From: a virus
Taxonomy: Duplodnaviria > Heunggongvirae > Uroviricota > Caudoviricetes
Direction: 5' to 3' (one strand)
Virus record (IMG/VR): IMGVR_UViG_2695420820_000005
DNA length: 17,115 bases
Position numbers: made by a program. Below, piece by piece: positions 1 through 12,000 of this stretch (position 1 is the first letter of the stretch; each line of letters begins with the position of its first letter).

Positions 1-3000
1 GAAGGAGTGTCCGTTAAACTCAGGCTACCTCAGTCTGCTGATTTGAGTCGCTACAGTGGCACGGTGGTTAACCGTCCGACGTTTTTTGCTTTTGCAAAAG
101 GCGCGGGTGTGATGGGGGAAGCGGGACCTGAAGCCATTCTGCCACTGCGTCGCGGTGCTGATGGTAAGCTGGGGGGTGTGGCGGATACTGGTGGTTCAGG
201 CATGGTGATGTTTGCCCCGCAGTACAACATTGAGATCAATAACGATGGCACGAACGGGCAGATAGGTCCGGCTGCCCTGAAGGTGGTTTATGACCTCGGG
301 AAAAAAGCGGCCGCGGACTTTATGCAACAGCAGGCCCGTGATGGTGGCCGGTTAAGTGGAGCATACCGGTAATGGAGACGTTTCACTGGAAAGTGCGCCC
401 GGATATGAATGTGGTATCAGAGCCGAAAGTGGTGACAGTGAAGCTGGGCGATGGTTATGAACAGCGTCGTGCGGCGGGACTGAATAACCAGTTGTCGACT
501 TACAGCGTGAAGATACGTGTTCGTAAAGGTGAACACCCATTTTTAAAAGCCTTTCTGGAACGGCACGGTGGCGTCCGCGCATTTCAGTGGACGCCACCTT
601 ATGACTGGAAGCCGATCAGGGTGGTTTGTCGTAAATGGTCGGCAAGCGTGGGGGCGTTGTGGGTAACCATAACGGCAGATTTTGAACAGGTCGTGGCATA
701 GGAGGCTCTGATGCAGGATATTCCACAGGAAACACATCATGAGACGACACGCCTCACTCAGTCAGCCCAGGTGGTGCTCTGGGAAATCGATCTGACAGAG
801 GTCGGTGGAGAACGTTATTTTTTCTGTAATGAGCAGAACGAAAAAGGTGAGCCGGTTACCTGGCAGGGGCGGCAGTATCAGGCATACCCCATTCAGGGGA
901 CGGGATTTGAACTGAACGGCAAGGGCAGTGCTGCCCGTCCGACACTGACGGTTTCTAACCTGCACGGAATGGTCACCGGGATGGCGGAAGACCTGCAGAG
1001 TCTGGTCGGCGGAACGGTGGTCAGGCGTAAGGTTTACGCCCGTTTTCTGGATGCGGTGAACTTCGTCAACGGAAACAGCGACGCCGATCCGGAACAGGAG
1101 GTGATCAGCCGCTGGCGCATCGAGCAGTGCAGCGAACTGAGCGCGGTCAGTGCCTCTTTTGTGCTGGCCACACCAACGGAGACGGATGGCGCGGTTTTCC
1201 CGGGGCGTATCATGCTGGCGAATACCTGTATGTGGACTTACCGTTCTGATGAGTGTGGTTACACGGGCAGGGCAGTGGCTGACGAGTTCGACAAACCAAC
1301 GACGGATATCCGGAAGGACAAATGCAGCAAGTGTATGCGCGGGTGTGAGTTGCGCAACAATACCGGTAATTTCGGCGGTTTCCTTTCCATCAATAAACTT
1401 TCTCAGTAAATCCATGACACAGACAGAATCAGCGATTCTGGCGCACGCCCGGCGATGTGCTCCAGCGGAGTCGTGCGGCTTCGTGGTAAGAACGCCGGAG
1501 GGGGAAAGATATTTCCCCTGCGTGAATATCTCCGGTGAGCCGGAGGCGTATTTCCGTATGTCGCCGGAAGACTGGCTGCAGGCAGAGATGCAGGGTGAGA
1601 TTGTGGCACTGGTCCACAGCCACCCCGGTGGTCTGCCCTGGCTGAGTGAGGCCGACCGGCGGCTGCAGGTGCAGAGTGATTTGCCGTGGTGGCTGGTCTG
1701 CCGGGGGGCGATTCACAAGTTCCGCTGTGTGCCGCATCTCACCGGGCGGCGCTTTGAGCACGGGGTGACGGACTGTTACACGCTGTTCCGGGATGCTTAC
1801 CATCTGGCGGGGATTGAGATGCCGGATTTTCATCGTGAGGATGACTGGTGGCGTCACGGTCAGAATCTCTATCTGGATAATCTGGAGGCCACAGGGCTGT
1901 ATCAGGTGCCGTTGTCAGCGGCGCAGCCGGGCGATGTGCTGCTGTGCTGTTTTNNNNNNNNNNNNNNNNNNNNNNNGCAGGGATTGAGATGCCGGATTTT
2001 CATCGCGGGGATGACTGGTGGCGTAACGGTCAGAATCTCTATCTTGACAATATGGAGGTGACGGGTTTTTACCGTGTCGCACTGACAGAGGCACAGCCGG
2101 GCGATGTGCTGCTGTGCTGTTTTGGTTCATCGGTGCCGAATCATGCCGCCATTTACTGTGGTGACGGCGAGCTGCTGCACCATATTCCTGAACAACTGAG
2201 CAAACGAGAGAGGTATACCGACAAATGGCAGCGACGCACACACTCCCTCTGGCGTCACCGGGCATGGCGCGCATCTGCCTTTACGGGGATTTACAACGAT
2301 TTGGTCGCCGCATCGACCTTCGTGTGAAAACGGGGGCTGAAGCCATCCGGGCACTGGCCACACAGCTCCCGGCGTTTCGTCAGAAACTGAGTGACGGCTG
2401 GTATCAGGTGCGCATTGCCGGGCGTGATGCAGGTGAAACCGAATTGTCTGCCCGTCTTAATGAGCCGCTGGCAAATGGTGCAGTGATCCACATAGTACCG
2501 CGTCTGGTGGGAGCTAAAAGTGGCGGTGTGTTTCAGGCGGTGCTGGGGGCGGCTGTTATGGCGGTTGCTATATGGATGCCGGGGGTAGGAATTATGGCGA
2601 GTAATCTGCTGTTTTCTCTCGGTGCCAGTATGACGCTTGGCGGTGTTGCACAGATGCTGGCACCGAAAGCCAGAACTCCCCGTACACAGACAACGGATAA
2701 CGGTAAGCAGAACACGTATTTCTCGTCACTGGATAACATGGTTGCCCAGGGCAATGTTCTGCCCGTTCTGTACGGTGAAATGCGCGTGGGGTCACGTGTG
2801 GTTTCTCAGGAGATCAGCACGGCAGACGAAGGGGATGGTGGTCAGGTTGTGGTGATTGGTCGCTGATGCAAAATGTTTTATGTGAAACCGCCTGCGGGCG
2901 GTTTTGTCGTTTATGGAGCGTGAGGAATGGGTAAAGGCAGCAGTAAGGGGCATACCCCGCGCGAAGCGAAGGACAACCTGAAATCCACGCAGTTGCTGAG

Positions 3001-9000: not shown

Positions 9001-12000
9001 GTTATGCCAACGCTGAAGATGAGCAAAAAACGCATTACAGCGATACCCGCTGGCATGAGGATTCCGTGCGTAACCGCTGGTTCAGCGTGATGGCGGGGCC
9101 GTCTGTGCGCGTGAATGAATGGTTCAGCGCGTATGCGATGGCGGGCGTGGCTTACAGCCGTGTGTCGACCTTCTCCGGGGATTATCTCCGCGTAACTGAC
9201 AACAAGGGGAAAACGCACGATGTGCTGACCGGAAGTGATGGCGGTCGCCACAGCAACACGTCTCTGGCGTGGGGGGCTGGCGTGCAGTTTAACCCGACCG
9301 AATCCGTGGCCATTGACCTTGCTTATGAAGGTTCCGGCAGTGGTGACTGGCGCACTGACGGTTTCATCGTGGGTGTCGGTTATAAGTTCTGATTAGCCAG
9401 GTAACACAGTGTTATGACTGCCCGCTGGTTCAGGCGGGCTTTTTGTGGGGTGAATATGGCAGTAAAGATTTCAGGTGTACTGAAAGATGGGGCGGGTAAA
9501 CCTGTCGTAAATTGTGCGATTGAACTGCGGGCCAGAAGAACCAGTCCGACCGTTGTGGCACACGTTGTTGCCACTTGCGTGACGGACAATAACGGTGCTT
9601 ATGTGATTGAGGCTGAGCCGGGGTATTACGAGGTTGCGCTTCACTGTAACGGCTGGCAGCCAACCCGTGTCGGGGATATTGATGTGGCACCGACTGATGC
9701 ACCGGGGACACTGAACGCGTTTCTGAATGCACCAAAGGATGGTGATTTACGTCCGGAGGTGATGAAGTGTCAGCGCCAGTGATATAAGACGGTAATTCGC
9801 CATTTGGATTGTCCGCTCCACCCAACATGTTGTTTCCTTAAGGTTCTCACACCAGAAAGGACATCAACATGCTGAGCAGAGAGGACTTTTACATGATAAA
9901 GCAAATGCGCCAGCAGGGCGCGTACATCGTCGATATTGCGACTCAGATTGGTTGCTCTGAACGGACGGTCAGACGCTACCTCAAATACCCTGAACCGCCA
10001 GCCAGAAAGACNGACGCTGACGCTCGACCGTGAAATCACGCTGCCATCCTCCGGCACCACGCTGATAAGCCTGGTTGACGGGCAGGGGAATCCGGTCAGC
10101 GTGGAGGTCCAGTCCGTCACCGACGGCGTGAAGGTAAAAGTGAGCCGTGTTCCTGACGGTGTTGCTGAATACAGCGTGTGGGGGCTGAAGCTGCCGACGC
10201 TGCACCAGCGATTGTTCCGCTGCGTGAGTATCCGTGAGAACGACGACGGCACGTATGCCATCACCGCCGTGCAGCATGTGCCGGAAAAAGAAGCCATCGT
10301 GGATAACGGGGCGCACTTTGACGGCGACCAGAGCGGCACGGTGAATGGTGTCACGCCGCCAGCGGTGCAGCACCTGACTGCCGAAGTCACCGCAGACAGC
10401 GGGGAATATCAGGTGCTGGCGCGCTGGGACACGCCGAAGGTGGTGAAGGGCGTGAGCTTCCTGCTCCGTCTGACCGTAACAGCGGATGACGGCAGTGAGC
10501 GGCTGGTCAGCACGGCCCGGACGACGGAAACCACTTACCGCTTCACACAACTGGCGCTGGGGAACTACAGGCTGACAGTCCGGGCAGTAAATGCGTGGGG
10601 GCAGCAGGGCGATCCGGCGTCGGTATCGTTCCGGATTGCCGCACCGGCAGCGCTGTCGCGGATTGAGCTGACGCCGGGCTATTTTCAGATAACCGCCACG
10701 CCGCATCTTGCGGTTTATGATCCGACGGTACAGTTTGAGTTCTGGTTCTCGGAAAAGCGGATTGCGGATATCAGGCAGGTTGAAACCACAGCACGCTATC
10801 TTGGCACGGCGCTGTACTGGATAGCCGCCAGTATCAATATCAAACCGGGCCATGATTATTACTTTTATATCCGCAGTGTGAACACCGTTGGCAAATCGGC
10901 ATTCGTGGAGGCTGTTGGTCAGCCGAGTGATGATGCATCCGGTTATCTGGATTTTTTCAAAGGCGAGATAGGGAAAACCCATCTGGCTCAGGAGCTGTGG
11001 ACGCAGATTGATAACGGTCAGCTTGCGCCTGACCTGGCTGAAATCAGGACGTCCATTACGGATGTCAGCAATGAAATCACGCAGACCGTCAATAAGAAAC
11101 TGGAAGACCAGAGTGCGGCAATTCAGCAGATACAGAAGGTTCAGGTTGATACAAATAATAACCTGAACAGCATGTGGGCTGTGAAGCTGCAGCAGATGCA
11201 GGACGGACGCCTTTATATCGCGGGTATTGGTGCCGGTATTGAGAACACCCCTGACGGCATGCAGAGTCAGGTGCTGCTGGCGGCGGACAGGATTGCGATG
11301 GTTAATCCTGCGAATGGCAACACAAAACCGATGTTTGTTGGTCAGGGCGATCAGATATTCATGAACGACGTGTTCCTGAAACGCCTGACGGCCCCCACCA
11401 TTACCAGCGGTGGAAATCCATCGGCATTTTCCCTGACTCCGGACGGAAAGCTGACCGCTAAAAATGCGGATATCAGTGGCAGTGTGAATGCGAACGCCGG
11501 GACGCTCAACAATGTCACGGTAAATGAAAACTGTACGATTAAGGGCATGCTGGAGGCGACTCAGGTCAGAGGTGACTTCGTTAAAGCTGTATCCAAATCA
11601 TTTCCGAAACAGGCTGGTACGTGGGGTAACACGGAAACACCAAACGGGACGGTTACAGTCACCATAAGCGATGATCATAACTTTGACCGCCAGATTATTA
11701 TTCCGCCCATTATTTTTAACGGTATAGCGTATGACGATCCGGGGAGCGGAAATAACCCAGGAGGCACGCGATACACGGGTTATGGTTTTGAAGTTCGCAA
11801 AAACGGCGTATTAATCGCATCCAGAGAAACTAAAGGTGCCATTCCCGGTAGTTACAGTGCAGTTATTGATATGCCTAGTGGTGGTGGTAGCGTCACTCTG
11901 GAGTTTAAGATTTTCCAGAAAGGCAATCAGGGGGCAGGCAATATCACCGACTGTACGGTGATTGTGACCAAAAAAGCGGCTTCCGGCATCAGTATTCGTT

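Follow-up and report, generated by a model that had tools for sequence, protein, structure and literature searches.

In false duplication, similar sequences are under-collapsed during assembly and placed side by side with gaps, as in 'heterotype false duplication' (Ko et al. 2022, Genome Biol 23:205, PMC9516828). Gaps lying between paired copies within a scaffold are known to mark such errors (PMC9516828). The genes considered here belong to the lambda-type tail module H-M-L-K-I-J-lom-stf-tfa, whose J product is represented by the lambda_TipJ family (NF049904). The genes underlying the window, by which we mean the whole 17,115-nt stretch of viral DNA that was analysed, are ordinary members of this module, in the standard order and with a J of 1159 or 1165 aa, and they are 96-100% identical to tail genes of E. 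coli and Shigella prophages. Unlike lambda_TipJ, the window contains a 1932-aa ORF that covers profile positions of about 357-1062 two or three times. We conclude, with a probability of roughly 0.96, that this 1932-aa J and the accompanying split K result from N-joined overlapping contigs of two similar S. sonnei prophage loci. The structure of the window is an assembly artefact and is biologically nothing new.

The window carries N marks at 1954-1976 (23 N), 6120 (1 N), 7248-7268 (21 N) and 10012 (1 N), exactly as given in the original prediction. Each of these four marks is followed by DNA that re-covers earlier sequence, over 147 nt to 1.5 kb and with 84-99% identity. The repeats were detected by self-BLAST of the window, with E-values between 6e-36 and 0, which exclude chance by far. 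All the re-covered pairs predicted beforehand were reproduced, with coordinates 1-2 nt off at most: 1807-1953 versus 1977-2123 (84.5% identity), 3994-5120 versus 6121-7247 (95.6%), 4950-6119 versus 7269-8438 (98.1%) and 6562-7242 versus 10013-10693 (98.7%). The same search aligned 4435-5956 with 10013-11534 (91%), 7269-8275 with 10528-11534 (90.9%), 7077-7242 with 7269-7434 (89%) and the two lom genes, 8687-9269 with 11964-12549 (88.8%). All four re-covering boundaries lie exactly at N marks, so that gaps separate the copies on one scaffold, as in false duplication. This argues against a real structure, in which the Ns would be low-quality bases and in-frame tandem partial duplications of J would yield a genuine 1932-aa tail-tip protein and an extra J fragment. 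Database masking was rejected as the source of the Ns, as masked bases would have no re-covered sequence behind them. Scans for tRNAs and Rfam families revealed nothing bearing on the joins.

Both parent loci are resolved in finished or chromosome-scale Shigella sonnei assemblies. The type I locus, an IS-flanked remnant, has the order H'-M-L-K-I-J(1159 aa)-lom(199 aa)-stf'::IS21. The order of the type II locus, located at about 2.54 Mb in strain Ss046, is H-M-L-K-I-J(1165 aa)-lom(160 aa)-stf(1029 aa)-tfa. In CBDDMI010000001.1 and JBEAAF010000002.1, the two loci (J of 1159 and 1165 aa) reside on one chromosome, 0.66-0.68 Mb apart. They are 88-93% identical over K, J and lom and have 32 exact words of 40-86 nt in common. 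When the window was painted with parents taken from one chromosome, 531 of the 883 informative sites were type I, 352 were type II and none was neither. In an earlier painting, 880 of 881 sites matched a parent, the lone exception being a private SNP of L013, a type I reference from a 4.82-Mb contig without Ns. The divergence between copies had been ascribed to paralogous prophages, and the painting agrees, as the base at each of the 883 informative sites is that of one or the other locus of a single chromosome; the copy differences are true variants of another genomic copy. Since every site is either type I or type II, what had been described as "SNP-level or patchy divergence" is a two-parent mosaic.

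These results also bear on a mixed sample (two strains or contamination) as the source of the divergent overlaps, instead of paralogous loci of one genome. Mixture alleles and paralogous variation look the same in a scaffold without reads, but several chromosome-scale S. sonnei assemblies place both parent loci on one chromosome, and those two loci account for every informative site. Furthermore, the sister scaffold L006 holds the same two types, and the IMG/VR numeric ids of the sister contigs resemble, by our own reading, those of isolate genomes. We therefore regard a mixed sample as very improbable.

Two parent loci from a single genome are enough to account for the window's sequence, a third copy being superfluous. 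Three or four distinct J copies had been considered because B, C, D and E (the contigs described below) show between them all four combinations of two variable blocks, x/y and p/q. This idea was dropped because the two-parent painting covers every site, and because the mosaic junctions are missing from complete genomes whereas the pure types are found there. The mosaic start of D (best 97.0%) and end of C (best 98.3%) had no match in 5426 complete genomes; their pure-type counterparts were present in complete genomes at 99% or above. The EIEC strain RMDEC364 (L001, L010) was rejected as a reference, as it is 94-98% identical to the window and hence not the source lineage. This strain carries twin prophages in one chromosome.

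The scaffold consists of five N-spaced, unmerged contigs (A-E), each re-covering part of an earlier contig; the re-covered stretches are there because the contigs were joined by N without merging. All segments and genes described below are on the forward strand, and the segments end on exact shared words of 23 to 399 nt or more. Segment A (1-1953) is of type I and comprises the end of the tape-measure remnant H' (7-372), M (372-701), L (711-1409) and K codons 1-180 (1414-1953). It corresponds to L013 3077-5029, with 1 difference up to 1460, followed by 47 mismatches and 2 gaps in 1461-1923. The K sequence of its tail (1441-1953) matches type II (L011) at 99.6% identity and type I at 90.5%; within the last ~490 nt, 1461-1653 and 1800-1923 are type II, with 2 type I sites at 1734-1740. 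Segment A thus carries the type II K allele from about 1461 to its end and is a chimera. At join 1 (1954-1976), 23 N stand between A and B, and B opens by repeating 147 nt from the end of A, now as the other K allele. A finishes with a 30-nt word that recurs exactly at 2094-2123; the start of B (1977) lies 3 nt ahead of the shared word and not exactly on it, which counts against our explanation. The A plus B span measures 5909 bp in complete genomes versus 6089 bp in the window.

Segment B (1977-6119, type I) contains K codons 132-247 (to 2327), I (2225-2866) and J nt 1-3193 (2927-6119). It is 99.7% identical to L013 4883-9025, with the type II base at 11 of the 12 differences, and has four short type II patches, at 2159-2216, 4144-4213, 4626-4634 and 4795-4801. 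Join 2 is the single N at 6120, where B ends at J nt 3193 and C begins at J nt 1068; scaffolders such as SSPACE write a single N for non-positive gap estimates. Segment C (6121-7247) represents type II J nt 1068-2194, except for its last 59 nt (7189-7247), which are type I; it paints as 57 type II sites followed by 8 type I sites. It shares 99.2% identity with the type II J of S. sonnei Ss046 and is identical to E over 627 nt. At join 3 (7248-7268), 21 N separate C from D, and D repeats the last 171 nt of C as well as the last 1170 nt of B.

Segment D (7269-10011, type I) includes J nt 2024-3480 (to 8725), lom (8793-9392, 199 aa) and the N-terminal part of stf (9414-9767), interrupted by IS21. 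It is 99.1% identical to L013 7856-10598, and 22 of the 24 differences fall inside 7381-7489, a 109-nt type II patch identical to E; two further type II sites are at 8831/8834. The left end of the IS21-family element (9768-10011) consists of the terminal repeat and the first 47 codons of istA (9869-10011; NCBIfam transpos_IS21, E 3.4e-5). In the closest relatives listed, 100% identical copies, annotated as istA of the IS21 family, were present 3-6 times per replicon. Segment D stops 244 nt into this multi-copy IS21, a point absent from the original prediction, and its contig break therefore has an independent cause. At join 4, the single N at 10012 sets the IS21 end of D (type I locus) against the middle of a type II J. 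Segment E (10013-17115) is type II at 210/210 informative sites and 100.000% identical to S. sonnei Ss046 (CP000038.1) over 5848 nt. It covers J from nt 1509 to the stop (to 12002), lom (12073-12555, 160 aa, with an 83-nt deletion), stf (12648-15737, 1029 aa), tfa (15737-16318, 193 aa) and downstream DNA. Overlapping contig ends had been expected to be concatenated here. Consistently, A, B and D tile one type I locus, overlapping by 147 and 1170 nt, on L013 and in chromosome-scale assemblies; C and E are overlapping pieces of type II J.

The false J ORF (2927-8725) is made up of the genuine type I J (3480 nt, from 2927-6119 and 8439-8725) and a re-covered insert of 2319 nt (6120-8438). Its length is the sum of 1159 aa for the true gene and 773 aa from the re-covered DNA, which stays in frame by chance. 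It runs across the N at 6120 and the 21-N run, and it repeats J nt 1068-3193. The copy offsets are 2127 nt (3 x 709) at join 2 and 2319 nt (3 x 773) from B to D; the two joins thus preserve the reading frame and the 1932-aa ORF appears. The chance that both J-internal joins are in frame is 1/9, which is mildly surprising, not significant, and was listed against the best explanation. At the A/B join the copy offset is 170 nt, and the two K parts, codons 1-180 at 1414-1953 (A) and codons 132-247 at 1977-2327 (B), are therefore in different frames. The real gene sizes are 247 aa for K, 1159 aa for type I J (3480 nt when rebuilt from B and D) and 1165 aa for type II J (3498 nt in Ss046 and other genomes). 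The 1932-aa ORF gave no one colinear match to the lambda_TipJ profile of ~1163 positions, for which a length of about 1130-1165 aa is expected. The part in B covered positions 1-1062 (2221 bits, cutoff 1950) and that in E positions 504-1163 of 1163. The two underlying J genes both matched the profile colinearly over their full length, in the H-M-L-K-I-J-lom-stf order.

The 1932-aa ORF was present in no N-free assembly examined. The J gene encodes 1159 aa in L001, L003, L007, L008, L013-L017, L019 and L020, and the J call is split in L018. That the giant J and split K are artefacts, as originally proposed, is supported by N-free sister contigs and chromosome-scale assemblies, which have a 1159-aa J, with 1165 aa at the second locus. 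L013-L020 (mostly 4.8-Mb contigs), L007 and L008 show one contiguous locus without duplication; the latter two, sisters with the stf::IS21 marker, have no N. Among the other sisters with this marker, L006, L003 and L004 have single-N joins elsewhere than in the window. None of the six IMG/VR hits matched the window identically from end to end. The stf::IS21 junction had 0 matches in GTDB representative genomes, and the type I locus was carried on contigs typically of 5-10 kb (389 of 543 blocks). The in-frame position of both J-internal joins (offsets 2127 and 2319 nt) could speak for real tandem duplication, as could the 'complete' E. coli record FY26, which has three tandem 3'-J fragments and no Ns; however, the FY26 array has different breakpoints and is placed at the very end of the record. 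Moreover, at this locus a single 1159-aa J is seen in N-free and chromosome-scale assemblies of the lineage, and the 'duplicated' copies are base-for-base the second locus, 0.66-0.68 Mb distant. Of 5426 complete E. coli genomes, none contained join 2 in the geometry of the window, nor did any sister or chromosome-scale assembly examined, and the copy junctions were not continuous in independent assemblies. Real tandem duplication was rejected on the basis of the resolved assemblies and the junction search; we consider it barely conceivable.

It is also possible, though unlikely, that the joins are artefactual and some of the short type II patches in type I contigs (D 7381-7489; B 2159-2216, 4144-4213, 4626-4634 and 4795-4801; A from 1461) reflect real recent gene conversion between both prophages. 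Lambdoid prophages often recombine, the 4626-4634 patch is common to B and the sister contig L006.3, and the type I allele is nowhere in the window at the patch sites, all of which would favour conversion. On the other hand, the type II tail of A is missing in 8/8 chromosome-scale or large-contig assemblies (L013-L020), none of the compared patches occurs in L013-L015, which were compared in full, and the larger mosaics are absent from the 5426 complete genomes. The exact shared words bordering the patches are only 37-79 nt long, and at such words a small-k assembly graph can switch copy; the stf::IS21-linked allele also varies among sister assemblies (x-p-m, y-p-m, x-q-m). If true, gene conversion would imply that sequence is still being exchanged within the receptor-binding tail-tip gene between defective prophages ~0.7 Mb apart.

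In the most probable explanation, the window is a scaffold from a draft assembly of short reads, and the assembled genome belongs to the Shigella sonnei lineage and has type I and type II as homologous tail regions of lambdoid prophages. The assembler presumably failed to separate both copies, and the contigs may have broken at or near shared words, at times crossing between the copies. Two of the resulting joins happen to keep the frame, giving the giant ORF, and the A/B join shifts it, splitting K. The warning that linkage in the window is untrustworthy holds even within single contigs, because the contigs themselves are mosaic (the tail of A, D 7381-7489, the last 59 nt of C and four patches in B come from the other paralogue). 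As had been stated, the window is an unreliable guide to which lom and stf belong to which J, yet the assignment can be resolved by the reference loci: lom(199 aa) and stf'::IS21 are assigned to type I J (B and D), and lom(160 aa), stf(1029 aa) and tfa to type II J (C and E).

The value of the finding is that of a quality warning only, with no new biology. Such scaffolds feed viral-contig and protein databases with a false 1932-aa 'giant J', a split K, false copy numbers and a false adjacency of loci that are really about 0.7 Mb apart, and the artefact could pass for tail-protein expansion, a cassette array or a new architecture. False joins of this kind also occur, with no N at all, in the sister IMG/VR contigs L004 and L005, and screening for Ns alone is therefore insufficient. 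Two-parent mosaic contigs would also mislead SNP-based or recombination analyses of Shigella prophage tail genes.

Compared with the false duplications described previously (PMC9516828), the copies in the window are likewise on the same scaffold, separated by gaps and different at real variants of another copy. Likewise, false gene gain and false gene structure are both present, and a better assembly removes both. Unlike that case, where two haplotypes of a diploid are involved, the window mixes prophage loci that are paralogues in a haploid bacterium. The breaks resemble those of short-read assemblies of IS-rich, poly-lysogenic Shigella and E. coli, with one contig ending in a multi-copy IS21 and others at words of paralogous prophages. 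Relative to such ordinary repeat-induced breaks, the only oddity is that overlapping contigs were kept in one scaffold, neither merged nor left separate.

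The window held 46 N at four sites, 1954-1976 (23 N), 6120 (one N), 7248-7268 (21 N) and 10012 (one N), which bound five segments: A (1-1953), B (1977-6119), C (6121-7247), D (7269-10011) and E (10013-17115). Self-comparison of the window revealed that every segment after A repeated DNA found earlier in it. The repeated pairs were A/B (1807-1953 versus 1977-2123, 84.5% identity), B/C (3994-5120 versus 6121-7247, 95.6%), B/D (4950-6119 versus 7269-8438, 98.1%), C/D (7077-7242 versus 7269-7434, 89%), C/E (6562-7242 versus 10013-10693, 98.7%), B/E (4435-5956 versus 10013-11534, 91%), D/E (7269-8275 versus 10528-11534, 90.9%) and the lom regions of D and E (8687-9269 versus 11964-12549, 88.8%). 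The original prediction had described such re-covering after each N mark, and its coordinates were off by only 1-2 nt. The sole difference within the B/D overlap was one 109-nt patch, flanked by 112 nt and 949 nt of exact identity.

The segments were mapped onto a complete E. coli prophage (L001) with a J gene of 3480 nt. Segment A covered the H end, M, L and K nt 1-540; B took in the rest of K from nt 394, all of I and J nt 1-3193; C comprised J nt 1068-2194; D held the remainder of J from nt 2024, followed by lom and the stf start; and E held the remainder of J from nt 1509, followed by another lom, stf and tfa. A and B together spanned 6089 bp in the window versus 5909 bp in complete genomes, where the 10,995 bp of C-D-E were reduced to approximately 7.5 kb. 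According to the ORF list, a 1932-aa ORF (2927-8725) continued through both the single N at 6120 and the run of 21 N, and K was present as two pieces. This ORF consisted of a true J (1159 aa) and 773 extra aa, the additional 2319 nt being one N, 1127 nt of C, 21 N and 1170 nt of D overlapping B. Both J-internal copy offsets, 2127 and 2319 nt, are divisible by three, so the reading frame of the false J was preserved (a 1/9 chance); the A/B offset, 170 nt, is not divisible by three, and thus K was split. Neither the giant J nor the split K, both suspected from the start to be assembly artefacts, is a real feature, as the resolved S. sonnei locus (type I, see below) has one 1159-aa J. Beneath these artefacts, the lambdoid tail genes (lambda_TipJ NF049904, Ail/Lom, stf and tfa) are ordinary. 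A long open frame of 733 codons (WPPLRCPG...RAAKSVRH) lay antisense to J at 3857-5614 (-) and 6059-7933 (-), as well as in L001 and the sister contigs L006, L007 and L008; it recurred in all examined type I J genes and probably just reflects their codon composition.

Two parent loci were identified in S. sonnei genomes. The type I locus, found in the blocks carrying a 122-aa ORF, reads IS..H'(121 aa)-M-L-K-I-J(1159 aa)-lom(199 aa)-stf'::IS21. On its reference L013, taken from a 4.82-Mb N-free contig, A mapped to 3077-5029, B to 4883-9025 and D to 7856-10598, and these three segments are overlapping tiles of one type I locus. The type II locus encodes J (1165 aa), lom (160 aa) and stf (1029 aa). 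Segment E was 100.000% identical across 5848 nt to CP000038.1 of Shigella sonnei Ss046 (PMC5447701), which encodes the 1029-aa stf protein exactly, and C showed 99.2% identity to the Ss046 type II J just upstream of the E match. Strains 53G, 75/02 and FORC_011 had the same type II locus, as did chromosome-scale assemblies. In CBDDMI010000001.1 and JBEAAF010000002.1, one chromosome carries both loci at a distance of 0.66-0.68 Mb. The window lacks nt 1-1067 of the type II J as well as the I gene of that locus. The proposed origin of the joins, overlapping contig ends of paralogous prophage copies, was therefore upheld, with A, B and D tiling type I and C and E matching type II. The linkage of lom and stf to J, also called unreliable, can be resolved by reference to the two loci: lom (199 aa) and stf'::IS21 belong with the type I J (B and D), and lom (160 aa), stf (1029 aa) and tfa with the type II J (C and E).

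The type II lom (ORF 12073-12555), judged against the other lom (9270-9346 region), had lost 83 nt between two CTGGCG direct repeats (12544-12549), giving a frameshifted 160-aa product. This deletion is real, since 1212 blocks, finished S. sonnei genomes among them, list the exact 160-aa protein. Within tfa (15737-16318), positions 15861-15923 (63 nt) are missing in Ss046, which has a deletion of about 65 nt and no tfa gene called; in the window, as in the majority of other S. sonnei assemblies, tfa is an intact 193-aa tail-fibre assembly gene. Its 3' coding end contained an Rfam IS009 (RF02111) match at 16080-16278 (+), scoring 218 bits against a gathering score of 117. A weak direct repeat inside the 1029-aa stf (14048-14135 versus 14181-14267, 77% over 88 nt), within one contig, is probably of the kind usual inside tail-fibre proteins.

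The segments were then painted at the 881-883 positions where type I and type II differ. Of 881 sites, 880 agreed with a parent and the remaining one was a SNP private to L013; when a single chromosome supplied both parents, 531 sites were type I, 352 type II and none neither. Segment A was type I up to 1420 and type II at 1461-1653 and 1800-1923, its tail being 99.6% identical to the type II K. Four small type II patches interrupted the type I sequence of B; C was type II except for a type I tip of 59 nt; D was type I, its 109-nt patch at 7381-7489 being type II; and E was type II throughout. The switches took place over words of 37-79 nt that both types share exactly; in all, 32 words of 40 nt or longer are common to them, with a maximum of 86 nt. 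Neither the mosaic C end nor the mosaic D end occurred in complete genomes (best matches 98.3% and 97.0%, respectively), in which pure type I and pure type II versions of the same interval were found at ≥99%. The mosaic contigs are thus most simply explained as chimeric graph paths. The small type II patches may, less probably, reflect real gene conversion, and one of them was also present in sister contig L006.3.

Most segment ends sat on exact words common to another segment: 30 nt at the A end, at least 399 nt at the B end, 23 nt and 102 nt at the C start and end, 112 nt at the D start and at least 399 nt at the E start; the B start was off a shared word by 3 nt. The right end of D left stf at 9767 and continued for 244 nt into an IS21-family element (terminal repeat and the first 47 codons of istA), identical copies of which numbered 3-6 per replicon among the closest relatives listed.

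This element sits in the N-terminal part of stf at 9767/9768, giving a truncated 122-aa ORF (9414-9782), and is itself broken by further IS elements in chromosome-scale assemblies. In the public collection, 543 blocks (S. sonnei lineage) carried the exact ORF, 4.8-Mb contigs among them. The stf::IS21 junction was found in none of 5426 complete E. coli genomes and in no GTDB representative genome; six IMG/VR contigs carried it. Two of these, L007 and L008, contained no N and a single contiguous K-I-J-lom-stf'::IS21 (J of 1159 aa), with the A/B and B/D overlaps merged. L006, L003 and L004 had single-N joins at J coordinates differing from those of the window, and the J haplotype joined to stf::IS21 varied among sister assemblies; the joins are thus assembly-dependent and not biological. 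Re-covering joins occurred in L005 and L004 even without any N, so N does not always mark false joins in assemblies of this lineage. In L005 (1070-1079), J nt 898-1047 were repeated (150 nt, 12 mismatches between copies), and in L004 (3065-3074) a type II to type I switch re-covered J nt 2410-2841, with an overlap of about 10 nt at each switch.

Repeated J genes or twin prophages were also observed elsewhere. The last 8.8 kb of the E. coli FY26 record (NZ_CP101741.1), labelled a complete genome, held three tandem, N-terminally truncated J fragments without N (J nt 1015-3566, 1429-3566 and 1144-3526), annotated as pseudogenes; lying at the very end of the record, this array may stem from a repeat left unresolved where the sequence was circularised. 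The E. coli RMDEC364 chromosome carries two lambdoid prophages, L001 at 2.90 Mb and L010 at 1.74 Mb, each adjoining an ipaH effector gene (ipaHd, ipaHe), with tail modules 99.08% identical over 12.3 kb, and is another case of paralogy defeating short-read assembly.

The presented results serve as a quality flag for the window contig and the proteins derived from it. In false duplication, similar sequences remain uncollapsed and become neighbours in a scaffold with gaps between them (PMC9516828). The window is a false duplication of this type, its similar sequences deriving from paralogous prophages of a haploid bacterium.
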